In this document: positions 10,689 to 47,278 of the stretch, piece by piece | How positions within the stretch are numbered: position 1 is the first letter of the stretch | Layout of the letters: each line of letters opens with the position of its first letter | Source: an uncultured Bacilli bacterium | Lineage (GTDB): Bacteria; Bacillota_I; Bacilli_A; RF39; UBA660 | Direction of reading: 5' to 3' | DNA: 64,000 nt | Assembly (NCBI GenBank): GCA_934122395.1 | Contig: CAKOWQ010000003.1 | Span: 186,299-250,298, forward strand | Notes under the pieces: generated by a model | Seen by the model: the letters and a program-made list of their open reading frames with translations, nothing else | Databases searched by the model: none | Told to the model about the DNA's origin: nothing | Made by a program: the position numbers and the translations under genes

Positions 10689-12140
10689 ATGAAAAAGAAA
10701 AGCTTATTTATTTTTATATGTGCTGTTATATTTTCTTTAGGAATGGGTGTAGATGCTAAAGAAATAACAGTATGCTCTGATGCAGCAACTTGTGATTATA
10801 CAGTTTTAAGAGATGCTACTGATGCTTCAATTGCAGGGGATGTAGTAAAATTAAAAGAAAATACTACTATAACTAGAGGAGTGTTATTACATAGTGAAAC
10901 TACATTAGATTTAGGTGGATTTACATTAACAGCTGAACCTGGTACATTTATTGCGGTAATAAACGGTAATAAAGATGTTAAAATTGTTAATGGTACAATT
11001 GAATTAAACAATGCTGCTAATGCTACAGGGCAAAATGCTAATGTGGTAATGCAAGGTGTTACTACTAAAGATGGAGCTACTACTTCATTAACAATTGCTG
11101 AAGACGTTACTATTAATTCAAATTTAAATGGTATTGTTATTCAAGCAGAGGATAAAGAATCATACAACACAATTTTAAATCTTTATGGTAAAATTAATGC
11201 TAAAGAAGTAGGTATTACAATTAATGGTTTTATTAGTGTTGTTGATGCACTTCAACCGGTAGTTAATATTTATGAATCTGCATCAATTAAAACAACAGAA
11301 GGACCTGCAATATATGCTGCTGGTTACGGAAGCTGGAACATTTATGGAGGATACTTTGAAGGAACAGAAGCTGTAAGTGTCAAATCAGGTAATATTAATA
11401 TATCTGGTGGTACTTTTAAAGCAATTGGTGAATATAAGGAAACGCCAACAGTAAATAATCGTGGATGGGAAGATACAGGTGCCGCTTTATCAATTACTTC
11501 GAGTACGAATTCTTATGCTAAAAATGTTACATTAAAAATTACTGCAGGACAATTTATAAGTAAAAATGGTCACGCATTATATGAGGGAATAACTGATGCT
11601 AATACTTCTGCTATAGTAAATGCAAGTATTACTGGTGGTATATTTACTTCAGCTACAGGAAAAGATAGTGTTAAAATCACTTCTAATAGTGATACTTTAA
11701 ATGGAGTTATTACTGGAGGAACATTTAGTACTACTCCAAGAGAAGAATTAGTTAATTCTAATGTTTCATCTTCTACTTTGGATGATGGTACTGTATTAGT
11801 TGGTTCTAAACATGGAATTACTGTAGGAACAATTGAAAATGGTATTGTAACTTTAGATAAAAACGTTGGAATTAAAGGTGAATTAATCAAACTTACTATT
11901 ACCCCAAAAGAAGGGTATGAAATAGATAAGATTGAAGTCTTGTGTGATGGTGATGAAGTATTAAGAACTGATAACGGATTTATTATGCCAGACGGTGACG
12001 TTGAAGTAAAAGTTACATTTAAGAAAGTTATTACTAATCCTAATACTTTTGATAATAGCTTAAATACATTGATAATATTAGGGGTTTGTGCATTAGGCGG
12101 ATTTATAACTTATAGAAAACTTGAAAAAAGTGCTAAATAA
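10689..12140 (+). CDS. Secreted beta-helix-like surface protein with C-terminal NPNTFDN sorting-like signal, TM segment and basic tail
   Basis: Signal peptide MKKKSLFIFICAVIFSLGMGVDA; repetitive Gly/Thr/Asn-rich segments typical of parallel beta-helix adhesins; C-terminus ...NPNTFDNSLNTLIILGVCALGGFITYRKLEKSAK. Confidence 0.6.
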   Translation: MKKKSLFIFICAVIFSLGMGVDAKEITVCSDAATCDYTVLRDATDASIAGDVVKLKENTTITRGVLLHSETTLDLGGFTLTAEPGTFIAVINGNKDVKIVNGTIELNNAANATGQNANVVMQGVTTKDGATTSLTIAEDVTINSNLNGIVIQAEDKESYNTILNLYGKINAKEVGITINGFISVVDALQPVVNIYESASIKTTEGPAIYAAGYGSWNIYGGYFEGTEAVSVKSGNINISGGTFKAIGEYKETPTVNNRGWEDTGAALSITSSTNSYAKNVTLKITAGQFISKNGHALYEGITDANTSAIVNASITGGIFTSATGKDSVKITSNSDTLNGVITGGTFSTTPREELVNSNVSSSTLDDGTVLVGSKHGITVGTIENGIVTLDKNVGIKGELIKLTITPKEGYEIDKIEVLCDGDEVLRTDNGFIMPDGDVEVKVTFKKVITNPNTFDNSLNTLIILGVCALGGFITYRKLEKSAK

Positions 12141-12152
12141 TGAACGATTTTA

Positions 12153-12177
12153 AAAGACTTAGTTATAAGTCTTTTTT
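12153..12177 (+). terminator. Rho-independent terminator
   Basis: AAAGACTTAGTTATAAGTCTTTTTT. Confidence 0.65.
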
Positions 12178-12194
12178 GCTTGAAGAGATAAAAC

Positions 12195-12292
12195 TGGACA
12201 AAATTTAAAAAGTGTGGTATAATCTGTCTCATTGAAGCGCTAGTATAGGCTTTTATAGTTTTTGTACTGCGCTTTTTATTTTTGGAAATGTC
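12195..12292 (+). promoter_or_regulatory. Promoter (TGGACA-17-TGTGGTATAAT) followed immediately by hairpin plus U tract; possible tiny sRNA or attenuator
   Basis: -35 at 12195-12200, extended -10 at 12213-12223; stem AGCGCTAGTA...TACTGCGCT plus TTTTTATTTTT at 12235-12285; a second promoter (TTGCAT 12309-12314, TATATT 12331-12336) precedes the downstream gene. Confidence 0.35.
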
Positions 12293-12367
12293 AATTTTTG
12301 TTAGATATTTGCATTTTTAAAAAAATATGGTATATTTAGTATGTACTTACTAAATTAGGGGGTTAAT

Positions 12368-14323
12368 ATGGAAAACTTTAAAATTAATGAAAAAAAATTA
12401 GAAGAATTAGATAATACATCTATTTCTAAAAAACAATTAACAGGGTATGCATCTATTGATACACCTTGGATGAAGTGGTATAACGAATCATTAAAAGATG
12501 TTGATTTTAAACATACTAACTGTTACGATTACTTTTTTGAAGTAACAAAAGAATTTAATTGGCCATTATGGGAATATTATGGTCGTAAATATACTGTTAA
12601 GGACATAAAGAAAGAAACGGATAAAATTATTAAAAAGTTAACAGCTATGGGTATTAAAGAAGGGGATACAGTATCATTTATATTCTTAAATGTACCTGAA
12701 ACTTTATTCTTCCATTTGGCATTATCTAAAATGGGAGCAATTACTAATTTAATTAAATTTGATGAACCTGCTGAACGTATTAAGTTCATGTGTGATTTAG
12801 CAAAATCTAGATATTTATTTGCAACAGAGATTCCACCTATTATAGATAATGTATTAGAAGCCTTAGATTTAGGTTGTGGTGTTGACCAAGTTATTTCTGT
12901 ACCGCTTACTGAAGCTATGCCTAAAGTTGCAGTATTAAACATGTTACATGAACAAAGTAAAAATAACATTCTAGAAGGTAAATCTACTGCTAATATATTG
13001 GTTGAAATGTCAAATCAATATAAAAGAACTCTTGAAATGCAAAAAAAATTGCAATCAAAGATTCTTACAAATCCACGTTTTATGACATATGATGATTGGA
13101 AGAAGAAATATAATGGGAATGACATGAATGTTATTACAGGTGGTGCTGATAACGTATCAGTTATTGTATATACTGGAGGTACTACTGGTAGTCCTAAAGG
13201 TGTAGAATTAACTAATGATAATTTAAATGCAAGTTCTCATGCTTTTACTAGAAGTGATATGGACTTTGATCCAAAAAGAACTTCTATGAGTATATTACCA
13301 CCATCAATTGCTTATTACTTCAATGCTACATACCAATTAATGTGTTGCGGTGTTAGTGTTAATTTGATTTCTAACTTTACTGTTCCAGAATATCCAAAAT
13401 TAATCGCTAAACATAAGCCTAATATATTTATGGCTGGTCCAATATTATTAAAAGAAATAGCAAAAGCTGATATTATGGATGATGTATCATTTATGATTGC
13501 ACCAATATCAGGTGGAGATAAATTAGAAGTATCTTTAGAGGAAGCATTTAATAATTACTTAAAAGAACATAATGGAGACACTATAGTTCGTCAAGGTTAT
13601 GGTTCAAGTGAATGTACTGCTGCTGCTACTTATATTAATAGACATGCAGCTAAATCAGATTGCCTTGGAAGTATTGGTATACCATTAATAGATATGACAG
13701 TTGCTATATTTGATTATATTCCATATGATGAATTCGATATGAATAATTTGGAAGAAAAGAAATATGGAGAAATAGGTGAGATTTGTATAACTGGACCTAC
13801 AGTAATGAAAGGTTATAGAGACAATCCTGAAGCAACTAATCAAGTGTTAAGAACGCATAAAGATGGTAAAGTATGGTTACATACTGATGACCTTGGATTT
13901 ATGGATGAGGATGGTAGAGTATACCACCGTGGTAGAGCTAAACGTATGCTTACAAGATCTGGTTCTAAAGTATGGTTATCACCTATAGAAGATGAGATTT
14001 CTAAACATCCAATGGTTGATGCTTGCTGTTGTGTTAAACTAGCTGATGAAGAAGAAAGTGAAGTTCCAGTAGCTCATATCGTATTAAAAGATGGTGCTTC
14101 ATTTGAAGAAGTTGCAAATGAATTGGATACCATGGTATCTAAAAATAATCCAGAAGTATATGTTCCAAAATATTATGTTAAACGTGATGAATTGCCAGTT
14201 ACAGAAGTCAACAAAAAAGTTAACTTTAGAGCATTAGAAAGTGAAGATATCTTTGATACCAAAGATTATTCAGTAAATGGTAAATTAATTACTAAGAAAA
14301 ACAAAGTAAAAGTTATGAAATAA
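12368..14323 (+). CDS. AMP-dependent synthetase/ligase (acyl-CoA synthetase-like adenylating enzyme)
   Basis: AMP-binding motif YTGGTTGSPKGV; 651 aa; GGGGG RBS. Confidence 0.8.
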   Translation: MENFKINEKKLEELDNTSISKKQLTGYASIDTPWMKWYNESLKDVDFKHTNCYDYFFEVTKEFNWPLWEYYGRKYTVKDIKKETDKIIKKLTAMGIKEGDTVSFIFLNVPETLFFHLALSKMGAITNLIKFDEPAERIKFMCDLAKSRYLFATEIPPIIDNVLEALDLGCGVDQVISVPLTEAMPKVAVLNMLHEQSKNNILEGKSTANILVEMSNQYKRTLEMQKKLQSKILTNPRFMTYDDWKKKYNGNDMNVITGGADNVSVIVYTGGTTGSPKGVELTNDNLNASSHAFTRSDMDFDPKRTSMSILPPSIAYYFNATYQLMCCGVSVNLISNFTVPEYPKLIAKHKPNIFMAGPILLKEIAKADIMDDVSFMIAPISGGDKLEVSLEEAFNNYLKEHNGDTIVRQGYGSSECTAAATYINRHAAKSDCLGSIGIPLIDMTVAIFDYIPYDEFDMNNLEEKKYGEIGEICITGPTVMKGYRDNPEATNQVLRTHKDGKVWLHTDDLGFMDEDGRVYHRGRAKRMLTRSGSKVWLSPIEDEISKHPMVDACCCVKLADEEESEVPVAHIVLKDGASFEEVANELDTMVSKNNPEVYVPKYYVKRDELPVTEVNKKVNFRALESEDIFDTKDYSVNGKLITKKNKVKVMK

Positions 14324-14331
14324 AGTGTCAA

Positions 14332-14367
14332 AAAGATGATTTTTATATAGATAAATCATCTTTTTTT
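14332..14367 (+). terminator. Rho-independent terminator
   Basis: AAAGATGATTTTTATATAGATAAATCATCTTTTTTT. Confidence 0.65.
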
Positions 14368-14393
14368 GTTATAATAATAATAGAGGTGACGAT

Positions 14394-16190
14394 ATGAATA
14401 GTATAGCTTATACAATAATTTCATGTATATTTAGTATTATTCTATTAATTGTTTATTTTAGCAAAGAAAGAATCAATTATATAGAAAACAAAATTTACTC
14501 AATAATAGTAATTACAACATTTGTAAGTTGCTTTACTGAGATAGTTAGCTTTGTTTTAGTTAAGAGTGGAGTATCAGCTTCTTCACTACTATATCATTAT
14601 GTTATTAAGTTATTGTTTTTAGGCTTTTTAACATGGCTTTATTTGTTTACTCTTTATACGGTTGCGGTTGGTCGAAAACTAAGGGGTGTACTAAGAGACA
14701 ATGCTCTACCTGCAAGAAAACTTACGGCAGGTTTTGTTTTAATAGCTTTAATAGTTCTTCTTTTACCGCTTCAAATAATAGAAACTAATGGGCTATTATT
14801 ACCAGTTGGTACTAGTGTTATGTTAATCTATATTTTAGCAATGATGTGTATTATTGTAATGATTATATCGATGATTTTAGGAAGAAAAAACTTAAGAAGC
14901 AGAAAATATATTCCTTTATATTTGTTAATATTTTTCTTTTCTGTAGTTTTACTTGTTCAAAAATTATTACCAGAATTATTTTTAATAAATCCGGCTTTTG
15001 TAGTTATTACTTTCTCAATGTATTTTACTATTGAGAACCCTGATATGAATATGGTTGACGAATTAATTGAAAATAAAAAACTAATTGAGCGAGCAGCTGA
15101 AGAAAAATCTATTTTCTTATTTAAAATGAGTCAAGGATTAAAAGAACCAGTTAATGCAATCGACAAGCAAATTAAAATATTTGAATCTAATAATTTGACT
15201 AAAAAAGATGTAGCTATTCTTATGGAAAATATTAATCAAAATAATCAGAAGATGAGTTATCTAATTAACGATGTTATAGGACTTAACTCATTTAACAATA
15301 ATATTAAAAAAGTAGAGAATACGTATAATATTTATTCGTTATTGGAAGACGTAAGAGTTCGTTCTAAAGGATATATTGCTAAGAATATAGATTATAGTTT
15401 TACTTCAGTATCAAGTATGCCTAAAGAGTTATATGGAGATGCAATTAAATTAAAACAAGTACTAATGTCTGTTATAATTAATGCTAGTAAAAATACTAAG
15501 AGTGGTTATATTCATGTAGATGTTAATTCATATACTAAGTTTGATATATGTAGACTAGTAATTATGATTGATAGTTCTAGTGATATAAGTATTAAAAAGA
15601 TTAATGAAATTCTAAACCAAGATTTAGAAATTTCGGATAAGGATTATTTAAAAATAGAAAAACTAGATGTTGATTTACCACTTGCTTATAAGATTATCAA
15701 ATCAATTGGTGGTACAATGTTCATTAAGAGTGAAGATGACAAAGGAAGCCGTGTTACTATAACTATTGACCAATATATCGTTGATAATGGTGAGATGAAA
15801 TTAAATAGTAAAGTAGATGCATACTTAAAAGCTCGTTCTAATTTTAAAAGAGTTTTAGTTGTTGATGATGATGAACAAGAGTGTAGGAAAATTAAAACTG
15901 CATTAGAAAAGATGGGATATGAAGTATCAGTTTCTATGTTTGGTAATGATTGTATAGAACGTATTAAAAATGGTGAAAAATATGAGTTTCTTTTAATAGA
16001 TGATGAACTAGAAGAGATGAGTGCTTTAAGTGTTATTCAAGCGATTGATGGATTAAAAGATAAAAGTAAGCGAATAGTAATGCTTGAAGAAGATAAGTTG
16101 TTTATTGCTAAGCATTATTTAAAAGATGGATTCTATAATTACATAGATAAAACTAACTTAATAGAAGAGCTAAAAAATAAATGCCATTAA
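14394..16190 (+). CDS. Membrane-bound hybrid sensor-kinase-like protein with C-terminal receiver domain; H-box is degenerate (Gln in place of the phospho-accepting His)
   Basis: About 6 N-terminal TM helices; dimerisation/H-box-like MSQGLKEPVNAI (canonical SHELRTPL); HATPase-like region (G-rich GGTMFIKSEDDKGSRV); receiver VLVVDDDEQE...FLLIDDELEEM. Confidence 0.6.
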   Translation: MNSIAYTIISCIFSIILLIVYFSKERINYIENKIYSIIVITTFVSCFTEIVSFVLVKSGVSASSLLYHYVIKLLFLGFLTWLYLFTLYTVAVGRKLRGVLRDNALPARKLTAGFVLIALIVLLLPLQIIETNGLLLPVGTSVMLIYILAMMCIIVMIISMILGRKNLRSRKYIPLYLLIFFFSVVLLVQKLLPELFLINPAFVVITFSMYFTIENPDMNMVDELIENKKLIERAAEEKSIFLFKMSQGLKEPVNAIDKQIKIFESNNLTKKDVAILMENINQNNQKMSYLINDVIGLNSFNNNIKKVENTYNIYSLLEDVRVRSKGYIAKNIDYSFTSVSSMPKELYGDAIKLKQVLMSVIINASKNTKSGYIHVDVNSYTKFDICRLVIMIDSSSDISIKKINEILNQDLEISDKDYLKIEKLDVDLPLAYKIIKSIGGTMFIKSEDDKGSRVTITIDQYIVDNGEMKLNSKVDAYLKARSNFKRVLVVDDDEQECRKIKTALEKMGYEVSVSMFGNDCIERIKNGEKYEFLLIDDELEEMSALSVIQAIDGLKDKSKRIVMLEEDKLFIAKHYLKDGFYNYIDKTNLIEELKNKCH

Positions 16191-23998: not shown

Positions 23999-24056
23999 TG
24001 ATATCTTTACATTTTGCCTATATATGTTATGCTTTATATATAATAAGGAGGATGAA

Positions 24057-24719
24057 ATGAAGAAGTTTAAATTAATTAGTATTGTATTAGCATTTATAGT
24101 ATTTGTTACTATGCCAGTTGTATATGCTCATGAAGTTGAATTAAGTAGTGATATTATTACTATTCCTACTACTAGCGAGTCTGCAATATGGAAAGGTACT
24201 AAAGTTCAAATTGCCAGTAGTTATGGAGAATATAATTTTTATTATCAATATGTAGTAATAACGGACGAACAATATAAAAATTATATAGGAATAAAAGAAG
24301 AACAAAAGAAATATGAAGCGGAGCATAAACCAGTAGCAGGTGCAACTAAAGAAGAACAAAATGCATATGAAGAAGAAATGAAAAACTATGAAAAATCAAA
24401 AGAAGGTATTTTACCATCATATGATGATAAAAAATGGATTGCATCTAGTGATAATACTGTACCAATAGATGAAGAAAAAAATACAGAACCTGCTAAATAT
24501 GTTTTATGGGTAAAAGTTGAAAGTAAAACAGGAACAGATAAAAATGCTAAATACAACGATTTAGTAGTTGTATATAACCCTACTACTAAGAGTGATGATA
24601 ATAGTAAAAGTGAAGAGGAAGCTAATCCAAGTACTAGTGATAATATAATACTATTTGCAGCAGGTGCAGCATTAATTGCTGGTGTTATGGTTGTAAGTTT
24701 TAAAAAATCAAGAGCTTAA
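24057..24719 (+). CDS. Secreted surface protein with C-terminal NPSTSDN sorting-like signal, TM and basic tail
   Basis: Signal peptide MKKFKLISIVLAFIVFVTMPVVYA; charged, Lys/Glu-rich middle; C-terminus ...NPSTSDNIILFAAGAALIAGVMVVSFKKSRA; AAGGAGGA RBS. Confidence 0.65.
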   Translation: MKKFKLISIVLAFIVFVTMPVVYAHEVELSSDIITIPTTSESAIWKGTKVQIASSYGEYNFYYQYVVITDEQYKNYIGIKEEQKKYEAEHKPVAGATKEEQNAYEEEMKNYEKSKEGILPSYDDKKWIASSDNTVPIDEEKNTEPAKYVLWVKVESKTGTDKNAKYNDLVVVYNPTTKSDDNSKSEEEANPSTSDNIILFAAGAALIAGVMVVSFKKSRA

Positions 24720-34991: not shown

Positions 34992-37013
34992 ATGCCTAAG
35001 AATTTAGTAATTGTGGAGTCTCCAAGTAAAAGTAAAACAATTGAAAAATATTTGGGAAAAGATTATAAAGTAGTGTCTAGTAAAGGACATATTAGAGATT
35101 TATCTACTACTGGTAAATTTGGATTAGGAGTAGATGTAGATAATGATTTTAAACCTAATTATATTCCTATTGCAGGAAAGAAAAAGGTTATTAGTGAATT
35201 AAAAAAATATATAAAAGAATCAGATAAAATTTATCTTGCAACTGACCCAGACCGTGAAGGGGAAGCTATATCATGGCATTTAAAAGATGCATTAGGTATT
35301 AAAGATAAAGATTATGAACGTGTATTATTTCATGAAATTACTAAAGATAAGGTTATTGAAGCATTTAAAAGCCCACGTAAAATAGATGATAATTTAGTTC
35401 ATAGTCAAGAAACTAGAAGAATTTTAGATAGAATTATAGGATTTAGATTAAGTAGATTAATGCAATCTAAAACAGGGGGAAAGAGTGCCGGACGTGTACA
35501 AAGTGTAGCGCTTAAACTTGTTGTTGATAGAGAACGTGAAATAGAGAACTTTGTTAAAGAAGAGTACTGGACTATTACTGGTATTTTTGATGAGTTAACA
35601 AGTGAGTTATTTAACTATAATCATAAAGATATTGAAATAAAGAGTGAAGAAGCAGCAGATAAGATATTAAAAGAATTAAGTGATAAATTTACAGTAGAAA
35701 GTATTGAATCTAAAAAGAAAAATAAGAAAGCTAAACCTCCTTTTATTACAAGTACATTACAACAAGAAGCTTCTACTAAATTAGGATTTACTGCTAAAAA
35801 AACTATGTCTATTGCCCAAAAGCTTTATGAAGGAATAGATTTGGAAAATGAAACAGTAGGTTTAATTACTTATATGAGAACTGATTCTATTAGATTAAGT
35901 GATGAATTTATTAAAAGTGGATATGCTTATATAAATAAAGAATATGGTAAGGATTATGTTGGGTATGTTAAAACTACTAAGAAAAAAGAAAATGTTCAAG
36001 ATGCTCATGAAGCTATAAGACCTACTAGTGTTAATAGAGATCCGTTAAGTGTTAAAAAGTATTTAACAAATGATGAATATAAACTTTATTCAATTATTTA
36101 TTATAGAGCACTAGCAAGTATTATGGCTGATGCTAAGGTTGATGCTACTACTATTATTTTTGATAATAATAATTATCAATTTAAAACAACGGGGCAAGTA
36201 CTTATCTATGATGGGTATTTAAAAGTATATAAGGATTATGAGAAAAGTGAAGATAGAGTTCTACCATCTATAAAAGAGGGTGAAGTTTTAACATCAAAAG
36301 AGATAAAGAAGGAACAACACTTTACTCAACCGCCTGCAAGATATACTGAAGCTAAATTAATTAAAGAGATGGAAGATTTAGGAATAGGTAGACCATCTAC
36401 TTATGCTAAGACAATTGATACTATAAAAGAACGTGACTATGTAACACTTGAAGATAAGAAGTTTAAACCAACAGAAATAGGAATTGAAACTACTGATAAG
36501 TTACAAGAGTTCTTTTCTGACTTGATAAATGTTGAATATACGGCTGCAATGGAAGAGGATTTAGATAAAGTTGCAGAAGGTAATAAGGATTCTATAAAAA
36601 TATTGAGGGATTTCTATAATCAATTTGAACCAGAAGTAGAAGCAGCATTTAAAAATATGGAAAAGAAAAAAGCAGAAGAGACTGGAGAAGTTTGTCCAGA
36701 ATGTGGAAGTCCTTTAGTGATTAGAAAGGGTAGATATGGAGAGTTTGTTGCATGTTCTAACTATCCGGTTTGTAAATATATAAAAAAAGAAGAAAAAGAG
36801 ATAAAGGTAGTTTGCAAGTGTCCTAAGTGTGGAAACGATATGGTAGAAAAGAAAACTAGAAAAGGTAAGATTTTCTATGGATGCTCTAATTATCCAAAAT
36901 GTAGGGTGGCAGTTTGGGATCTTCCAACTGGAGAAACATGTCCAGAATGTGGTGAACTTCTAGTAGAAAAGAATAAGAAAATTAAATGTAGCAGTTGTAA
37001 TTATGAAAAGTAA
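34992..37013 (+). CDS. topA: DNA topoisomerase I
   Basis: TOPRIM start (LVIVESPSKSKTIEKYLG); active-site region; three C-terminal C4 zinc ribbons (CPECG...C..C motifs). Confidence 0.9.
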   Translation: MPKNLVIVESPSKSKTIEKYLGKDYKVVSSKGHIRDLSTTGKFGLGVDVDNDFKPNYIPIAGKKKVISELKKYIKESDKIYLATDPDREGEAISWHLKDALGIKDKDYERVLFHEITKDKVIEAFKSPRKIDDNLVHSQETRRILDRIIGFRLSRLMQSKTGGKSAGRVQSVALKLVVDREREIENFVKEEYWTITGIFDELTSELFNYNHKDIEIKSEEAADKILKELSDKFTVESIESKKKNKKAKPPFITSTLQQEASTKLGFTAKKTMSIAQKLYEGIDLENETVGLITYMRTDSIRLSDEFIKSGYAYINKEYGKDYVGYVKTTKKKENVQDAHEAIRPTSVNRDPLSVKKYLTNDEYKLYSIIYYRALASIMADAKVDATTIIFDNNNYQFKTTGQVLIYDGYLKVYKDYEKSEDRVLPSIKEGEVLTSKEIKKEQHFTQPPARYTEAKLIKEMEDLGIGRPSTYAKTIDTIKERDYVTLEDKKFKPTEIGIETTDKLQEFFSDLINVEYTAAMEEDLDKVAEGNKDSIKILRDFYNQFEPEVEAAFKNMEKKKAEETGEVCPECGSPLVIRKGRYGEFVACSNYPVCKYIKKEEKEIKVVCKCPKCGNDMVEKKTRKGKIFYGCSNYPKCRVAVWDLPTGETCPECGELLVEKNKKIKCSSCNYEK

Positions 37014-37035
37014 TTAAGCACTAACAATTTTGTTA
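37008..37035 (+). terminator. Rho-independent terminator after topA
   Basis: CACTAACAATTTTGTTAGTG plus TTTTTT. Confidence 0.65.
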
Positions 37036-37119
37036 GTGTTTTTTATTTATTTTTGGTTGCTTAATATTAAAAAATAAACTATAATTATCTTAGAATAGAA
37101 GATAGTTGGTGATTAGGTA

Positions 37120-38400
37120 ATGAATAAGAAGATACTATTGATGTTTACTTTTTTATTTTCATTTTTCATGTTTAAAGATAATGTTTTCGCTGGTACCGTT
37201 CTAAAAGAGACTGATTATACTTTAGAATGTTTATATAGTGATGGAGGCCTTTATACCAATGAGTGGTCTAATGGAAGGGGAGCATATATAGTAAATCGTA
37301 CATCATATAATTTAACTGATGCTTCACAATCAGATACTAATAAAGGTGGAGATATGGTTTTTGTAAATACACCCGCTATTAGAGGTAGGACTAATCAACA
37401 ATACACAACATGTGCTTTAAAACTGTATTCTGCTGTGGTTCAAGGAAGTAATGATGCAGCAATGTCATATTTTAAATTCAATACCTCTTTTACTTGCAAT
37501 ACTTCTGATAATTCATGTCCTGAATTTGGCGTTGAAAAAAGTGGATGGTCAAAATTTTGGGGAACTGCTGGAGCTTTAAAAGAATATGCATCAGCTGCAG
37601 AAGCTGCTAATAATTCTCCTTATAATTTGATTTCTGAACGTTATTTATTTAGCAATAATATTCCGGAACCCAACAAGACTTTATATTATGTATTACCGGC
37701 TACTCAAAAAATAGGAACTAATATGTATGTAAAAATATATATTTACGACAATATCACTTTGTTAGATAAAGATGGGCGCATTACTAGATTAGATGGTGAT
37801 ACTAGTCTATTTTCTCAAACAACTTTGCCAGAAAAAATATATTTAAATTCCCCAGAGCCTATTCCAGTTACAGGAACTAATTCTGTTGTTTCTTATAAAT
37901 ATAATGCAGATCAAATAATTTATTCTTTTACAACTGCTTCAGATCCTACTCACACTATAGGATTTACAAATTCAACTGATAATCCACCTGATGATAGTGA
38001 TACAAGTAGTAGTTTATGTACTGAAAAATTAAAAAACACATCTCCTGTGTTGAAAAGTATCATTCAATTTGGTCAAATTTTACTTCCTGCGCTTGTTATT
38101 ATTTTAACAGGATTGGATATTGGAAAAATAGTTGTAACAGGTAATATCGAAGAAGAGTTACCTAAACGTAAGAAAACAATAATTAATAGAGCTATAGTAT
38201 TGTTAATTTTATTATTCTTACCTTTACTTGTTAAAGTTATGTTGAAGATAGTTAAGGATACTGGTAGTGATATTGCAAATAACATTGAATATATTGATTG
38301 TTTATTTGATTCTAGTGCTAAAGCAGGAACAGCTAAAAAAGGTTCAACAACAAAAAAATCAAATAATTCAAAAAATGAAAATGTTGCCGTAGAAAAGTAA
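37120..38400 (+). CDS. Secreted Cys-containing protein with two C-terminal TM helices and Lys/Ser-rich tail
   Basis: Signal peptide MNKKILLMFTFLFSFFMFKDNVFA; about 300-aa extracellular region with 8 Cys; C-terminal hydrophobic helices (ILLPALVIILTGL, AIVLLILLFLPLLV). Confidence 0.55.
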   Translation: MNKKILLMFTFLFSFFMFKDNVFAGTVLKETDYTLECLYSDGGLYTNEWSNGRGAYIVNRTSYNLTDASQSDTNKGGDMVFVNTPAIRGRTNQQYTTCALKLYSAVVQGSNDAAMSYFKFNTSFTCNTSDNSCPEFGVEKSGWSKFWGTAGALKEYASAAEAANNSPYNLISERYLFSNNIPEPNKTLYYVLPATQKIGTNMYVKIYIYDNITLLDKDGRITRLDGDTSLFSQTTLPEKIYLNSPEPIPVTGTNSVVSYKYNADQIIYSFTTASDPTHTIGFTNSTDNPPDDSDTSSSLCTEKLKNTSPVLKSIIQFGQILLPALVIILTGLDIGKIVVTGNIEEELPKRKKTIINRAIVLLILLFLPLLVKVMLKIVKDTGSDIANNIEYIDCLFDSSAKAGTAKKGSTTKKSNNSKNENVAVEK

Positions 38401-38442
38401 TACGGCAAAGAAAAGTAAGAAATTTAATATTGAGGTGATAGC

Positions 38443-40458
38443 ATGGTAGACTTTTTTGCGGCGGCTCAAAGAGTTATTTCAATGATTATGACTGGTACTG
38501 AGTTAGTGTTTATTGTATGGCTTACTTCTGGTGGCGTTATTTTTGTACTAAGAGGAATAAGCTTTTGGATAGATTGTACTATAGTAAAGTGCATTGGTGC
38601 AATTTATAGTTACTTTATGACATTATTAAATGGTACTATGTTTAACAAAACACTGGTTAATGCAGTTATGAAAAATGTATATATATTTATTGGAGTGTTT
38701 ATATTCTTTAGAGTAGCCATGCTTCTTATTAAATATATAATGAATCCGGAAATGGTTGCCGATCAGAAAGCCGGTGCTAATGCATTAATTAAAAGAGTAA
38801 TAATTGGTATGATGGGAATAATTTTTATACCAACTATATTTGATTATGGTTTAAAACTTCAATCTGCTGTAATTGAGGATCAACTGATTCAACAGTTATT
38901 TATTCCAAGTGATATGATAAAAGAGGTTGAAAAACAAACAACAAATGGAGGAAATGGAATAGGTACCACAATTTTTTCTGGTTTTATTAATCCTAGCTCC
39001 AAGGCGCCGGATAAAATTAAGAATGAATACAAGAAGGCCTTGGAACAGAAGGATTTATCATCTATAAATTTTAATAGCGGGGGATTCCTGGGAATAGGAT
39101 ACTCGAGTTATGATTATAGTTATTTTTACTTAATTTCGACCTTTGTTCTTGGATATGTATTGTATCTTATGCTTAAATATTGTTTAGATATAGTTGTCCG
39201 TTTCTTTAAGCTTTTTCTATTTCAATTAATTGCGCCAATTGCTATGGTGGAATATATGGCGAATGGTGCAGACGATGGCGTTTTCAAAAATTGGAAAAAT
39301 GCTGTTCTTGGTAGCTATTTGATGCTATTTACTAGAATTATGTCTATTTGGTTTGTCTTGTTTGTTATGACTTTGTTAAACGGCAATTTTCCTAATTATA
39401 GCAATGGGTCATTATTAGCTGAAAATGATTACTTATTAAAAGCCTTAATAATGATAGGATTGCTAGCATTTATGATGGATCTGCCTAAAATCATTGGTAG
39501 TATATTTGGCCTTGATCTAGAACAGGATTCATCTGCTACAGGTTTATTAAAATCATTTGGTGGTATGATCAAAGGTGTCGGATTAGGCGCTGTTTCTTTA
39601 GGCGGCGCAGCAGCAGCAGGTGGATTTAAAAGAATTCAGAATGCCGGTGGTGCTGCTAGTAAAATGCATGCCTTAAATCAACAAAAGAAGAGTGATATGG
39701 CAGCAGGAACATTTGATGCTGCTAAATATAATCAAAATAAGGCTGCTATAATGAAAGATTTCAAGACTGGAAAATCAAATGCTATGAGAGCTACAGGTGT
39801 TGGAATGCTTAAATCATTAGCTGGTAATAGTAAGATTGTTGGCGCTGCTTATAGTGGTGCTACTGGTGTTACAGAAGATATTAAAAAGAAAGAGGGTAAA
39901 GCTGAAGCTAAGGCACAAGCTGAGGAAGAAAGAGCTTATAGACAGCATCAAATAGAAGTTACTGATGAAATTAATACTAATACACATGTAATAGTTGGTC
40001 AGCAAGCTGTTGCTAATGTTAAACTTGATAATTTAGTAGACAATTCTGAACAAACATTGACTCAAACCGTTAATATTGATCATAAATTAGGCAATGTTAG
40101 TAATAATGTTGAAGCGATTGCTAAAAATACTGAAACTACAGCTCAACAAACAGTTAACATTGATCAGAAACTAGGAACAGTTAGTGGCAACGTTGAAGCA
40201 ATTGCTCAAAATACTGAGACTGCGGCTCAACATACTGTTAATGTTGATCAAAAATTAGGAAAAATTAGTGGTAAGATTGATACGATTGCAGATAATACAG
40301 AAATTTCTGCTGAACAATCAATTGATATAAATCAAAAAGTTGGTAACATTAGTGGCGATGTAAGTAATATTTCTGATAATACAGAATTAATAGGGGATGC
40401 TACTTTAAACATTGAACATAGCACTAGAGATGATGATAAAGAATCATTAAATAGTTAA
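38443..40458 (+). CDS. Polytopic membrane protein with C-terminal coiled-coil tandem repeats
   Basis: At least 7 predicted TM helices in residues 1-360; Gly/Ala-rich linker; C-terminal five or more 21-aa degenerate repeats (TVNIDQKLG-VSGNVEAIA-NTET-AQ). Confidence 0.55.
   Translation: MVDFFAAAQRVISMIMTGTELVFIVWLTSGGVIFVLRGISFWIDCTIVKCIGAIYSYFMTLLNGTMFNKTLVNAVMKNVYIFIGVFIFFRVAMLLIKYIMNPEMVADQKAGANALIKRVIIGMMGIIFIPTIFDYGLKLQSAVIEDQLIQQLFIPSDMIKEVEKQTTNGGNGIGTTIFSGFINPSSKAPDKIKNEYKKALEQKDLSSINFNSGGFLGIGYSSYDYSYFYLISTFVLGYVLYLMLKYCLDIVVRFFKLFLFQLIAPIAMVEYMANGADDGVFKNWKNAVLGSYLMLFTRIMSIWFVLFVMTLLNGNFPNYSNGSLLAENDYLLKALIMIGLLAFMMDLPKIIGSIFGLDLEQDSSATGLLKSFGGMIKGVGLGAVSLGGAAAAGGFKRIQNAGGAASKMHALNQQKKSDMAAGTFDAAKYNQNKAAIMKDFKTGKSNAMRATGVGMLKSLAGNSKIVGAAYSGATGVTEDIKKKEGKAEAKAQAEEERAYRQHQIEVTDEINTNTHVIVGQQAVANVKLDNLVDNSEQTLTQTVNIDHKLGNVSNNVEAIAKNTETTAQQTVNIDQKLGTVSGNVEAIAQNTETAAQHTVNVDQKLGKISGKIDTIADNTEISAEQSIDINQKVGNISGDVSNISDNTELIGDATLNIEHSTRDDDKESLNS
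40063..40400 (+). repeat. About 63-nt degenerate tandem repeat (about 5 copies) encoding 21-aa units inside the 38443-40458 gene
   Basis: Repeated ...ACnGTTAAyrTTGATCAraAATTAGGaAmaGTTAGTGGyAAyGTTGAAGCrATTGCnmAAAATACTGAaACTrCrGCTCAAcA... Confidence 0.6.
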
Positions 40459-40487
40459 GAGGAATTAGTGATAATTCTTCTTTTTTT
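40459..40487 (+). terminator. Rho-independent terminator
   Basis: GAGGAATTAGTGATAATTCTTC plus TTTTTTT. Confidence 0.55.
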
Positions 40488-40523
40488 GTGTCTAAAATGT
40501 TATAATATTTATAGGTGATTATA

Positions 40524-44551: not shown

Positions 44552-45913
44552 TTAGTTATTTTCTCTAACTAATTTTTTAAAAGCATTACCTTTTTCTTCA
44601 AAATTTTTAAAATATTCATAGCTGGCAGCAGCTGGTGACATTAAGCATATCATGCCTTTCTTAGTAACTAGTTTTGCCTTATCAACAGCTTCTTCCAACG
44701 TATCAACTAAGTAAATATTTTTGTTTGCTTTGGCATTGATTAAGATATTGGCAATTTTATGACCGGTACTAGGCATACATATTAAATTCTCAATGTCTGC
44801 TGTTTTTAAGTAATCAATAAATTCATTATAATTTATTCCACGATCAAGTCCCCCAAATATTAAAGTATTTACTTTTTTTAGTGCTTTAATTCCATTAACA
44901 GTTGCATCAGGTATTGTTGCTATAGCATCATTATAGTAAGTTACATCATTAAATGTTCCAACTAATTCTAATCGGTGTTCTAAAGGGGTAAAGTTGTTAA
45001 TAGCAGTTGTTGTTTTTGATAAGTCTAAATTTAATATTTCACTTAGGGTAAAGCACATCATAATATTGATTAAATTATGATCCCCAATAAGGTTTCTTTC
45101 TTCTTTTACATCATATATCTTTTTACTATTAACATAGATGAATTTATGATCACAATATGTTTCTATATCTTTAGTATCAAAATTAACCCTAAAAATATTG
45201 GAACATGGGTTTAATTTTTTTATTCGTGTATCTAATGCTTCACATCCATTATAGTATATCAATACGTCATCGCTAGTTTGATATCTTGTAATATTAAGTT
45301 TAGCGTGATAATAATCTTCTAATCCGTTAGTGTGATCTAAGTGATCTTCATAAAAATTTGTAATAAGAGAAATATGAGGAGAATTAGTTATAAACTCTAA
45401 TTGATGTGATGACATTTCTACTACTAGTAATGTATCACTTTCAATTTTATCAATATAATCGAAAATAGGCGTTCCTATATTTCCAAGTAAAAAACATTTC
45501 TTATTATTAGCTTTTAATATTTCATAAATTAATGATGAGGTAGTACTTTTTCCTTTAGTACCAGTAATACCTATAATATTTTTTCTGAAGTATTTTATCA
45601 ATATTTCAAGTTCAGATGAGATTTTATTTTTAATTTTTGATGTATCAATATCTCTAAAAGATATTCCTGGTGCTTTCATAATCAAGTCATATTCGTCTAG
45701 ATTGTCTAGATAATTTTCACCAGTTATAATAGTTGCATTCTTATCATCTTTTAATAATGATTCGTCTTTTATTTTGTCGTTTTTATCTTTTATTGTTAGA
45801 TTAATGTTTCCCAAATATTTTCTTATAAAAGAATAGGTTGATTTTCCCTCTTTACCAAATCCTAAAATAACTATTTTTTTATCTTTAAATTCATTAATTA
45901 TATCATTAATCAT
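44552..45913 (-). CDS. murD: UDP-N-acetylmuramoylalanine--D-glutamate ligase
   Basis: N-terminal Rossmann KIVILGFGKEGKS; Mur-ligase ATP motif GITGTKGKSTT; 453 aa. Confidence 0.85.
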   Translation of the reverse strand: MINDIINEFKDKKIVILGFGKEGKSTYSFIRKYLGNINLTIKDKNDKIKDESLLKDDKNATIITGENYLDNLDEYDLIMKAPGISFRDIDTSKIKNKISSELEILIKYFRKNIIGITGTKGKSTTSSLIYEILKANNKKCFLLGNIGTPIFDYIDKIESDTLLVVEMSSHQLEFITNSPHISLITNFYEDHLDHTNGLEDYYHAKLNITRYQTSDDVLIYYNGCEALDTRIKKLNPCSNIFRVNFDTKDIETYCDHKFIYVNSKKIYDVKEERNLIGDHNLINIMMCFTLSEILNLDLSKTTTAINNFTPLEHRLELVGTFNDVTYYNDAIATIPDATVNGIKALKKVNTLIFGGLDRGINYNEFIDYLKTADIENLICMPSTGHKIANILINAKANKNIYLVDTLEEAVDKAKLVTKKGMICLMSPAAASYEYFKNFEEKGNAFKKLVRENN

Positions 45914-47278
45914 TTAAATCATCTCCTTGTGTAATAGGTCAATATACTTAGTAGGAATATTATTTTCTATATTAAAGTGTTCTTCTAAATTATTGGTATA
46001 GAGTTTATAGTTATCTTTATAAAACTTTAATAAATAAGGAAGCTTTTCGCTTTTTTCTTCTAATCTAAGAATTGTCTTACTACAAGCAAATCTTACCTCA
46101 TCATATGTTCCTACACATTCAAATGGTTTATTTTTAGCATCTCCTAAGAGTTCTTTAAATGTTTCTAACATATCTTCTTTGTCTAATAAATTAGTTGAAA
46201 ATATATTTTGTAACGTATTAGTATCAATATATGGGCTTAGTATAATATATATAAATAAACACTTAGAACAATTACAACACCAGTTAGTTCCCGTTTTTTT
46301 ACTACTTAAATTACAACTTCTAAAAATGTTATAGTATTTAGGATATTTACTAAATATTTTTGCTATTTCAATTTCTAAAAGAGGTCTTAACAAACTAAAG
46401 TATTCTGTTTCTTTATTGAAATATTTATTGGTATAAATTCTAAAATCATTTTCAAATTCTAAGCTTTTAGAGTATTGATGGTTAACATTTGTTCCTTTGA
46501 CATTTCCTTCATTACTACTGTCTTCATTTGATACAATAATATATTTTTTGTTATTAAGATAAGCCATTATATATGCTGCAAAAGCTAATTGTGATGATAA
46601 TGGAACATGGCCATTTAAAAATCCTTCTTTATTTAGTTTAAGTAGGGTACTATCAATTTCAGATGTCAATATAACGATATCATCATCAGTATATCCTGCT
46701 TGATATATGGAATTATATGATGGCATGTTTTTTGGATAAATATTTCTTTCAAAAAGGAAACATAAATTATCATCTTTTTCTTCTTTTAAAATCTCCATTG
46801 AGACAATAGAATCTTTTCCACCACCAACTAGTATTAAATTGCCGCTAGGATTTAATTTAGGTATATTATGTTCTTTTTTATTACTCTTAACTATAAAGTT
46901 AGTAAACTCATCATAAGATAGGTCAATTTCATTACGATAAAAATATTCGCTTAATCCATTAAAGATCAATTTTTTAAAGAAAGATATTTGATCTTCATTT
47001 ATGTAATCTGCCTCGATAATAATTTCCTTTGGACAACTTAATTTGAAGTAATTAATAATATTTACTAATCCAAAATTAAAGAATAAATAATTTAAATAGT
47101 CTTCATCAATATCTTTGGTCTTAATATGTTCTTTATCAATATAAATACTAGGAGTAAAAGTATATTCACCAAGCATATATGTATATTTTACTTGGATGTT
47201 GGTATCATTATTTATAACTTCGTAACTTTTATATATTAACTTATTATATTTTTCTCTTAGTTCTTTGTAATTTGTCAT
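45914..47278 (-). CDS. PP-loop (adenine-nucleotide alpha-hydrolase) ATPase with C-terminal Cys cluster; uncharacterised; co-operonic with murD
   Basis: SGGxDS-type PP-loop LILVGGGKDS at about residue 150; CNLSSKKTGTNWCCNCSKC Cys cluster at about 320-340 plus FECVG; stop abuts the murD start (45913/45914). Confidence 0.6.
   Translation of the reverse strand: MTNYKELREKYNKLIYKSYEVINNDTNIQVKYTYMLGEYTFTPSIYIDKEHIKTKDIDEDYLNYLFFNFGLVNIINYFKLSCPKEIIIEADYINEDQISFFKKLIFNGLSEYFYRNEIDLSYDEFTNFIVKSNKKEHNIPKLNPSGNLILVGGGKDSIVSMEILKEEKDDNLCFLFERNIYPKNMPSYNSIYQAGYTDDDIVILTSEIDSTLLKLNKEGFLNGHVPLSSQLAFAAYIMAYLNNKKYIIVSNEDSSNEGNVKGTNVNHQYSKSLEFENDFRIYTNKYFNKETEYFSLLRPLLEIEIAKIFSKYPKYYNIFRSCNLSSKKTGTNWCCNCSKCLFIYIILSPYIDTNTLQNIFSTNLLDKEDMLETFKELLGDAKNKPFECVGTYDEVRFACSKTILRLEEKSEKLPYLLKFYKDNYKLYTNNLEEHFNIENNIPTKYIDLLHKEMI

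Follow-up and report, generated by a model that had tools for sequence, protein, structure and literature searches.

The locus described here raises one question: what are two genes for membrane proteins doing at a housekeeping site, between topA and polA? The genes lie in a 64,000-nucleotide stretch (the window; G+C content ~27%) of contig CAKOWQ010000003.1, from an uncultured Bacilli bacterium, where they fill the interval from topA (34992-37013) to polA as a pair of same-strand open reading frames (ORFs), which we call gene 1 and gene 2 and together the module (coordinates in Table 1). An earlier reading made from the letters alone (the sequence-only reading) had delimited this two-gene module correctly. 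We find that the module resembles, and descends from, the pilin/VirB6 part of monoderm type IV secretion systems (T4SSs), yet departs from such systems in several of the features by which their members are recognised. As to function, we propose, with a probability of about 0.55, that the module descends from the pilin-plus-VirB6 part of a Gram-positive T4SS, stands alone and presents a cassette-variable surface contact structure.

Gene 2 has the layout of a polytopic VirB6 protein, with about 7 hydrophobic segments in residues 20-352 and a loop of ~90 aa at residues 136-225, in agreement with the sequence-only reading, which had made out at least seven transmembrane helices and a Gly/Ala-rich linker behind them. 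Its core matches two NCBIfam families, NF045848 (“MMCAP2_0566 family conjugal transfer protein”; E = 2.1e-16, residues 35-364 aligned to profile positions 8-321 of 322) and NF045889 (“Mbov_0396 family ICE element transmembrane protein”, where ICE stands for integrative and conjugative element; E = 3.2e-8). No VirB6/TrbL-type Pfam model was among the gene 2 matches at E ≤ 1, Pfam, PHROGs and PADLOC scans of both proteins returned nothing significant (coiled-coil noise on the gene 2 tail only), and PDB sequence searches with the family profiles gave no match. The AlphaFold2 model of gene 2, built on a 67-sequence alignment, has a predicted local distance difference test score (pLDDT) of 80-94 over residues 1-365 and of less than 50 over most of the tail, and the top three Foldseek matches of its core among 350,542 PDB chains are the TrwI/VirB6 stalk chains of R388 (probability 0.94-0.75, TM-score 0.40-0.43, E = 0.09-0.27, about 13% identity).

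What decides the identity of gene 2 is the genomic context of its distant homologues. Four of these (P0085, P0074, P0076 and P0080; 24-31% identity) lie, without exception, in full Gram-positive-type T4SS clusters, in which small pilin-like proteins and a larger protein made of an ectodomain plus a hairpin precede the gene 2 homologue, and a VirB3-like gene (105-109 aa), a TraC-like gene, VirB4, a cell-wall hydrolase and a large gene follow it; in two loci the large gene has the Pfam domains of the coupling protein VirD4, and in the remaining two it has no Pfam match. This is the order prgH(VirB6)-prgI(VirB3)-prgJ(VirB4) of pCF10 (PMC12857230), and the gene 2 homologues stand in the canonical VirB6 position. 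The VirB4 of these clusters is closest to the mycoplasma-ICE VirB4 family, Mbov_0397 (1.3e-109), and the polytopic protein CDS16 of the mycoplasma ICE has been taken as the VirB6 of that system (PMC12857230); the T4SS-embedded P0074 also matches the pLS20_p028 family over its full length. Judged by family profiles and by this context, gene 2 is a homologue of the VirB6-position polytopic proteins of monoderm T4SSs and mycoplasma ICEs. A likeness to VirB6/TrbL had been ventured earlier as speculation; the NCBIfam matches and the operons around all four distant homologues bear it out as homology, and TrwI/VirB6 chains head the structure matches, weak as these are in E-value.

The operon context that surrounds those four homologues is lacking around gene 2 itself. 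VirB4, VirD4, VirB3-like and hydrolase genes are absent from the window and from the 10 kb around the module in 17 related loci, as are the relaxase, coupling protein, integrase and replication functions by which an ICE or a plasmid would be recognised, and no integrase, relaxase or att-like structure is present at the locus. The remark that no secretion ATPases are nearby proved correct for T4SS ATPases across all 64 kb of the window.

Complete T4SS clusters of the related type were seen in two settings. Four contigs from different samples (L004 6081-21935, L005, L006 and L027 5452-22295) carry a full Gram-positive-type T4SS at a single site, in the order tmk-spoU-rimM-trmD, T4SS, rhodanese; it comprises PF18895-like pilin genes, a VirB6-like gene, a VirB4 split into ORFs for a VirB3-like protein, a TraC-like protein and the ATPase, a SpoIID/M23 hydrolase and VirD4. 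Pfam recognises neither a relaxase nor an integrase among its called neighbours within 10 kb, and the cluster recalls the relaxase-less chromosomal T4SS and pilin arrays described for Patescibacteria. An identical T4SS gene order occurs against a sporulating-type background in L007 (2229-19685) and L026 (9161-20320), where YunB and DUF4015 form a conserved right flank; the T4SS of L007 has Tad-like pilus genes (RcpC, T2SSE ATPase) immediately upstream and a HicAB pair downstream.

Gene 1 supplies the second half of the likeness. As described before, it has a signal peptide (cleavage-like motif ...NVFA/G), an ectodomain, which we delimit at ~275 aa, two C-terminal transmembrane helices and a Lys/Ser-rich tail, the last confined to the closest relatives. 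To call it Cys-rich was an overstatement, with 6 Cys (37, 98, 126, 133, 300 and 394) among 426 residues, four of which (C37, C98, C300 and C394) are nevertheless invariant across 33 homologues. Hydropathy places the helices at about residues 314-338 and 359-377, around a KRKK loop, and the AlphaFold2 model (pLDDT 79.5) consists of strands from residue 33 to 285, in an ectodomain modelled mostly at pLDDT 80-96, and a long helical hairpin at residues 307-380. Neither PDB nor BFVD yielded a Foldseek match to this model better than E 0.1, and the ectodomain has no structural relative among them.

The helical hairpin, whose nature the sequence-only reading had missed, runs from C300 through a transmembrane helix, a predicted cytoplasmic loop GNIEEELPKRKK and a second transmembrane helix to C394, and with its two helices (residues 307-340 and 343-380), basic loop and signal peptide has the make-up of a pilin. 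Aligned with hhalign, the gene 1 family matches the 114-aa pilin-like protein of L007 at a probability of 98.3% (E = 1.5e-14) over 91 columns that include the terminal Cys, and the 365-aa T4SS-embedded ectodomain-plus-hairpin protein at 96.6% (E = 4.8e-10), in the latter case with an alignment confined to the hairpin and no ectodomain homology detected; blastp of gene 1 against the pilin-like genes of the T4SS operons reaches 1e-13 in a small database. The small proteins of those clusters (110-128 aa) themselves score 23.4-23.7 bits against Pfam PF18895 T4SS_pilin (E about 5e-5), just below the gathering score, and the Cys pair around the hairpin is present in every T4SS-embedded hairpin protein that we inspected. 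By these alignments, the C-terminal helices of gene 1 are a VirB2-type pilin-like hairpin, homologous to the pilin-like proteins that precede the VirB6-like gene in T4SS operons. In size gene 1 lies outside the range of small pilins (about 70-130 aa), at 426 aa with a 275-aa ectodomain. Since the termini would be outside and the basic loop inside, C300 and C394 would sit on the outer face, where we infer a predicted disulphide that would close the hairpin.

Pilin-like hairpins, including that at window positions 38017-38307, also weakly match the first two-helix region of NF045890, NF045889 and NF045848 (profile positions about 50-130, E = 0.002-0.04), which may reflect either a similar composition or an ancient relationship of the pilin hairpin to the hairpin at the N terminus of VirB6-like proteins.

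The two genes are found together wherever the module is complete. Searches recovered 85 homologues of gene 2 and 35 of gene 1 (best E = 1e-280), and in each of the 22 complete modules gene 1 lies no more than 65 nt upstream of gene 2, a co-conservation in keeping with the sequence-only reading, which took them as one module. All 17 related loci, from uncultured gut Bacilli, have topA and/or polA as a neighbour of the module, which is present in one copy or in two tandem copies (two in five loci, one of which is a near-duplicate of another). The homologues come from metagenomes and metagenome-assembled genomes only, labelled “uncultured Bacilli bacterium” with the exception of one Erysipelotrichaceae; the named sources are rabbit, goat and sheep gut or rumen, along with other gut metagenome assemblies, and the exact protein is present in 50 blocks of the assembly collection. 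No relatives were found in PLSDB plasmids (tblastn) or IMG/VR viral contigs, and a plasmid or phage origin is not supported. The pair is vertically retained at the topA-polA site in one lineage of uncultured gut Bacilli.

In two more distant relatives (L002 12097-20844 and L010 12257-20121), extra genes intervene between the module and polA, namely those for a 329-359-aa unknown protein, a PAP2 phosphatase, an Endonuclease_NS nuclease and an ABC (ATP-binding cassette) exporter pair, and in L002 also a serpin.

Selection acts very differently on the parts of the module. Measured against L021, whose flanks are about 84% identical to the window in nucleotides, the gene 2 core (92% amino acid identity; ratio of nonsynonymous to synonymous substitution rates, dN/dS, 0.04) and the gene 1 hairpin (94%; 0.07) are under strong purifying selection, in the same range as flanking topA (92%; 0.05) and polA (96%; 0.05). 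The gene 2 linker (71%; 0.23) and repeats (74%; 0.29) are less constrained, and the gene 1 ectodomain is the extreme (46%; 0.32), evolving about ten times faster than the membrane parts, with a dN of 0.50 against 0.04 in the flanks.

Beyond this divergence, whole modules differ in type between close relatives. Contigs L022 and L024, from one metagenome, represent a closer relative, with topA and polA 96% identical to those of the window in amino acids; L022 aligns to the window at 93.8% nucleotide identity over 7,039 bp, ending at 37190 inside the signal peptide, and in L024 identity (92.6%) resumes at 40475, 17 nt past the gene 2 stop. Between these two positions the encoded proteins are only 27-31% (gene 1) and 34-49% (gene 2) identical to those of the window. 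A close relative with ~93% identical flanks thus has a different module type, with sharp recombination breakpoints. At least five types of gene 2 core can be distinguished, 30-50% identical to one another and 22-31% identical to the T4SS-embedded relatives, and their distribution is at odds with flank similarity. Segments outside the cores recur across modules: ~90 bp of promoter/5' region stand again before a second module (L024 46-135 vs window 37041-37129, 88%), and the repeat-bearing tail is common to different core types (window c3 and L022 c2, 78.6% nucleotide identity). Because they are shared between modules, these promoter/5' and tail segments could serve as substrates for unequal recombination, and we read the locus as a small array that would evolve through duplication, loss and replacement of whole modules together with exchange of tails.

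Silent-cassette antigenic variation inside the window is ruled out, as its 64 kb hold no further partial copies of gene 1 or gene 2. In L022, the region at 12024-15374, downstream of the module, has fragments of an ISL3-like transposase (193 aa and 125 aa) and, after them, three reverse-strand genes, one of them for a 410-aa secreted-looking protein; the topA-polA interval therefore admits extra cargo.

In the tail of gene 2, the sequence-only reading had made out five tandem repeats of 21 aa (63 nt) that might vary in number by slippage. The location given for them, about 40063-40400, is right (40063-40356 by Tandem Repeats Finder, TRF; 40060-40395 in the protein register), and the unit is not: it measures 84 nt (28 aa), repeated in full four times and followed by the first 8 residues of a fifth copy, with a consensus of about TQTVNIDQKLGxVSGNVEAIAxNTETTAQ, and the consensus string previously offered itself has 27-28 residues rather than 21. 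TRF reports 3.5 copies with 75% matches, no indels and a score of 273. A Lys/Ala-rich predicted helical region of ~140 aa (residues 400-539) separates the Gly/Ala linker from the repeats.

Frequent slippage in the window allele is unlikely, because the repeat units are just 75% identical in DNA; five variants of this allele (≥90% identity) are all 671 aa long with four repeat copies. The proposed length variation may have an instance elsewhere, in the second VirB6-like gene of L009 (about 11770-11870) and L016 (about 11800-11900), which differ by one exact 84-nt unit (3 vs 4 copies) and are otherwise 99.97-99.99% identical across 22 kb; the difference is either a true copy-number change or an assembly collapse. 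The 28-aa repeat occurs in just 17 of 91 homologues, mostly in 3-5 copies and as a single partial match in three, and homologues that lack it have other tails, for example with a VNQV(L/M)G-type motif. An exhaustive search of the tail against 1.84 billion representatives matched 12 proteins, of which those outside the family are coiled-coil or repeat proteins of a generic kind, carrying OmpA, glycosyltransferase or M60-like domains. By this search the 28-aa repeat is lineage-specific, and it gives no lead on function. From its Lys-rich start, the tail is probably cytoplasmic.

How might such a pair work by itself? Gene 2 would oligomerise into a VirB6-like membrane platform, which would bind the gene 1 hairpin within the membrane in the manner proposed for helix alpha-1 of VirB6 and VirB2 in R388, a contact put forward from the R388 structure together with co-evolution analysis (PMC9259494). 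The ~275-aa ectodomain of gene 1 would thereby be displayed outside the membrane, where it could make contact with, or recognise, another cell, host material or a phage, its specificity diversifying through rapid ectodomain change and through gain, loss and replacement of modules, and the C-terminal tail of gene 2 might couple the platform to some partner.

Several points weigh against this reading. Both the oligomerisation of gene 2 and its complex with gene 1 are steps that we infer, and the topology of the two proteins derives from crude hydropathy and charge counts; were the Gly/Ala segment to cross the membrane, the gene 2 tail could be extracellular. Pilin handling in characterised systems requires VirB4, and any activity of a pair without an ATPase is putative; the hairpin loop EELPKRKK, cytoplasmic and strongly conserved, hints at a partner in the cytoplasm. 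The orphan status of the pair is a local one, established for the 64-kb window, out of a contig of at least 839 kb, and for 10 kb around 17 loci. The structural match of gene 2 to VirB6 has a weak E-value (about 0.1), gene 1 itself scores 12.7 bits against PF18895 (gathering score 26.6; E = 0.14), and gene 2 stays below the NCBIfam cut-offs (60.1 bits vs 90 for NF045848, 33.4 vs 70 for NF045889). The previous conclusion that no described family is recognisable here accordingly survives as far as curated thresholds go, all of which are missed, and falls with the significance of the matches to conjugation families.

The strongest competitor is that the pair is the distal part of a complete but dispersed T4SS, with its ATPases elsewhere in the genome, and that the locus supplies alternative pilin or stalk subunits as specificity or antigenic variants; we regard this as a real possibility at odds clearly short of even. 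The related T4SS type is very common in gut Bacilli, with 7,407 database clusters of its VirB4 at E ≤ 1e-30 (one named Candidatus Coprovivens), and sits at fixed chromosomal sites with no relaxase or integrase recognised among the called genes within 10 kb. Patescibacteria have many VirB2-like and VirB6 genes away from virB4, with highly divergent pilin arrays (PMC12102498), virB6 genes are duplicated in Rickettsia (PMC2653234), and tandem duplication is seen at the topA-polA locus too; an ATPase contact would suit the cytoplasmic hairpin loop of gene 1, which is invariant. On the other side, there is no T4SS gene anywhere in the stretches searched around the module, and the related full clusters already have pilin-like and VirB6-like genes of their own. 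Among the gene 2 homologues and VirB4 matches listed (for VirB4, the best 120 of 7,407), none lies on a contig equal in length to the 839-kb, 797-kb or 557-kb contigs that carry the module, a weak and uninformative observation.

A further, unlikely reading would make the topA-polA locus a polymorphic “mating-type” or kin-type cassette of a chromosomal, relaxase-less, T4SS-like system for exchange between cells, in which the choice of partner cells for contact would fall to the variable ectodomain together with the VirB6-like platform matched to it. The mating-identity locus of mycobacterial distributive conjugal transfer offers an analogy, and the arrangement may be likened to the essential pilin arrays of epibiotic Patescibacteria.

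Slightly less credible still is a recipient-side role in exclusion, or as a decoy, against incoming conjugative elements, in which an arms race would generate the type polymorphism. Such a conflict would suit the polymorphism and the fast-evolving exposed part, and VirB6-type proteins are indeed targets of specificity, YddJ of ICEBs1 acting on an extracellular loop of ConG (bioRxiv 10.1101/2021.01.25.428195). Known exclusion proteins are, however, small, recipient-side and unrelated to VirB6, whose relatives act in the donor; PADLOC gave no match, and no conjugative element was seen nearby.

That the pair might be a housekeeping envelope set unrelated to secretion, with a T4SS likeness that stems from transmembrane composition, is very improbable and is rejected on selection, synteny and context. 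The sub-threshold family scores, the Foldseek E of about 0.1 and the housekeeping neighbours could be taken that way, but the E = 2e-16 match spans the full profile, all four distant homologues occupy the canonical position in T4SS operons, the 98.3% hhalign match of the hairpin takes in the flanking Cys pair, and the module is limited to one lineage and hypervariable, unlike housekeeping genes. Least probable of all is a decaying ICE remnant without current function, which the homology to ICE/T4SS components and the transposase fragment next to the L022 module might suggest and which selection and synteny contradict, both ORFs being intact in 22 modules at 17 or more loci and one housekeeping site, with membrane-part dN/dS (0.04-0.07) equal to that of topA and polA, the exact protein in 50 assembly-collection blocks and no integrase, relaxase or att-like structure.

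With a stand-alone pilin-plus-VirB6 descendant as the preferred reading, the module can be set beside known systems. Its nearest counterparts are the polytopic CDS16-type proteins of mycoplasma ICEs (Mbov_0396/MMCAP2_0566), the families to which the gene 2 core matches best, along the entire profile. From these and from pLS20_p028 gene 2 differs in scoring below the curated cut-offs, in having neither an ICE nor adjoining VirB4/VirD4 around it, in its 300-aa variable tail with 28-aa repeats, and in being always partnered with an ectodomain-bearing pilin-like protein. For the R388 stalk, the proposal is that VirB6 holds VirB2 by way of a transmembrane helix and has an exposed cap (PMC9259494). 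The parallel to VirB6/VirB2/VirB5 is a VirB6-like protein with a pilin-like hairpin that here bears the ectodomain; the host, by contrast, is a monoderm with no outer-membrane complex, gene 1 has 426 aa rather than the ~70-100 aa of a pilin, and there is no VirB4/VirB11 nearby for pilin extraction.

The two-helix hairpin and basic loop are shared with PF18895 and the Patescibacterial pilins, which form tandem, highly divergent arrays as part of a relaxase-less chromosomal T4SS; VirB2 homologues are generally said to be absent from the T4SSs of Bacilli (PMC12102498). Gene 1 differs from PF18895 pilins by its large N-terminal ectodomain and by the invariant Cys pair that brackets the hairpin. 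VirB6 proteins of the Rickettsiales bear long C-terminal extensions. The rvh system of the same order has in common with the locus a tandem duplication and strong divergence of VirB6- and pilin-type genes in reduced genomes (PMC2653234), and differs in belonging to diderm Proteobacteria, with VirB6 paralogues beside virB3-virB4 and a full ATPase set in the genome. In ConG of ICEBs1 an exposed loop of a VirB6-type protein serves allele-specific recognition (bioRxiv 10.1101/2021.01.25.428195), which suits the type polymorphism seen here, although ConG acts in a complete donor conjugation machine and no YddJ-like partner or ICE is found at this locus. The archaeal Ced/Ted systems for DNA import, a domesticated form of conjugation machinery, likewise put VirB6- and VirB2-like proteins to chromosomal, non-mobile use (PMC9905601); they differ by a VirB4-like ATPase.

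Our literature searches, incomplete and hence no proof of absence, turned up no description of a pilin-like and a VirB6-like gene that form a stand-alone, syntenic and cassette-variable pair. Gram-positive T4SSs are, in general accounts, devoid of VirB2-type pilins, and to our knowledge T4SS parts that act outside a complete machine are barely documented. Here such a pair is strongly selected at a housekeeping site without neighbouring ATPases and undergoes cassette turnover, in hosts that are common, uncultured gut Bacilli of humans, rabbits and ruminants. Should the pair function by itself, T4SS parts would have a new minimal use, as a surface structure; if the pair instead joins a T4SS elsewhere, the locus would be a specificity-switching site for a very abundant chromosomal gut T4SS. 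In both cases it offers a testable way into the surface variation and contact biology of a lineage that has no cultured member, and an experimentally tractable VirB2-VirB6 pair.

The features of the locus are collected in Table 1. The terminator-like hairpin behind topA sets the module apart from that gene, and with the promoter-like site and the hairpin behind gene 2 it makes the gene pair look like its own transcription unit. A second candidate element, TATAAT, lies within the promoter-like site at about 37080, a GGTGAT ribosome-binding site stands between that site and gene 1, and a GAGGTGA ribosome-binding site stands 5 nt upstream of gene 2. The hairpin behind gene 2 is terminator-like, yet weaker than the threshold of the scanner.

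Table 1. Features of the topA-polA interval in window coordinates (aa, amino acid residues).
Position	Strand	Feature	Remark
37016..37041	+	Intrinsic-terminator-like hairpin, 11-bp stem and T-run	Directly 3' of topA stop
37067..37096	+	Promoter-like site TTAAAA-18-TAGAAT upstream of gene 1	Consensus match only
37120..38400	+	Gene 1, 426 aa: predicted signal peptide, variable ectodomain, T4SS pilin-like hairpin, short tail	
37120..37191	+	Gene 1 predicted signal peptide, aa 1-24	
37192..38016	+	Gene 1 ectodomain, aa 25-299	Beta-rich, quickest-evolving part
38017..38307	+	Gene 1 pilin-like helical hairpin, aa 300-396	
38443..40458	+	Gene 2, 671 aa: VirB6-like polytopic core and variable C-terminal tail	
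38443..39537	+	Gene 2 VirB6-like membrane core, aa 1-365	
39538..40059	+	Gene 2 Gly/Ala-rich linker (aa 366-399) and Lys/Ala-rich predicted helical region (aa 400-539)	
40060..40395	+	Gene 2 four tandem 28-aa repeats, aa 540-651	
up to 40455	+	Gene 2 truncated fifth repeat and acidic end	
40459..40487	+	AT-rich hairpin GAGGAATT...AATTCTTC, then T7	Directly 3' of gene 2 stop, read from sequence

For polA, the ATG at 40524 is a likelier start than the GTG at 40515 chosen by the ORF finder, as AGGTGAT precedes it and the annotation of L001 agrees. The other genes of the window are housekeeping genes, for example thrS, mraZ-rsmH-ftsI, greA, tig, glmM, fpg, murD/murL and dnaG. Two further predicted surface proteins are encoded in it, one of 483 aa (10689-12140) that is Gly/Thr/Asn-rich and one of 231 aa (24024-24719) with a Lys/Glu-rich middle, both with a signal peptide and a C-terminal transmembrane anchor. 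On the minus strand, at 44552-47278, a MurD-like ligase adjoins a MurL-type epimerase (Pfam MurL_N and MurL_epimerase_C in the L001 annotation), and this pair is kept downstream of polA-fpg in related loci.

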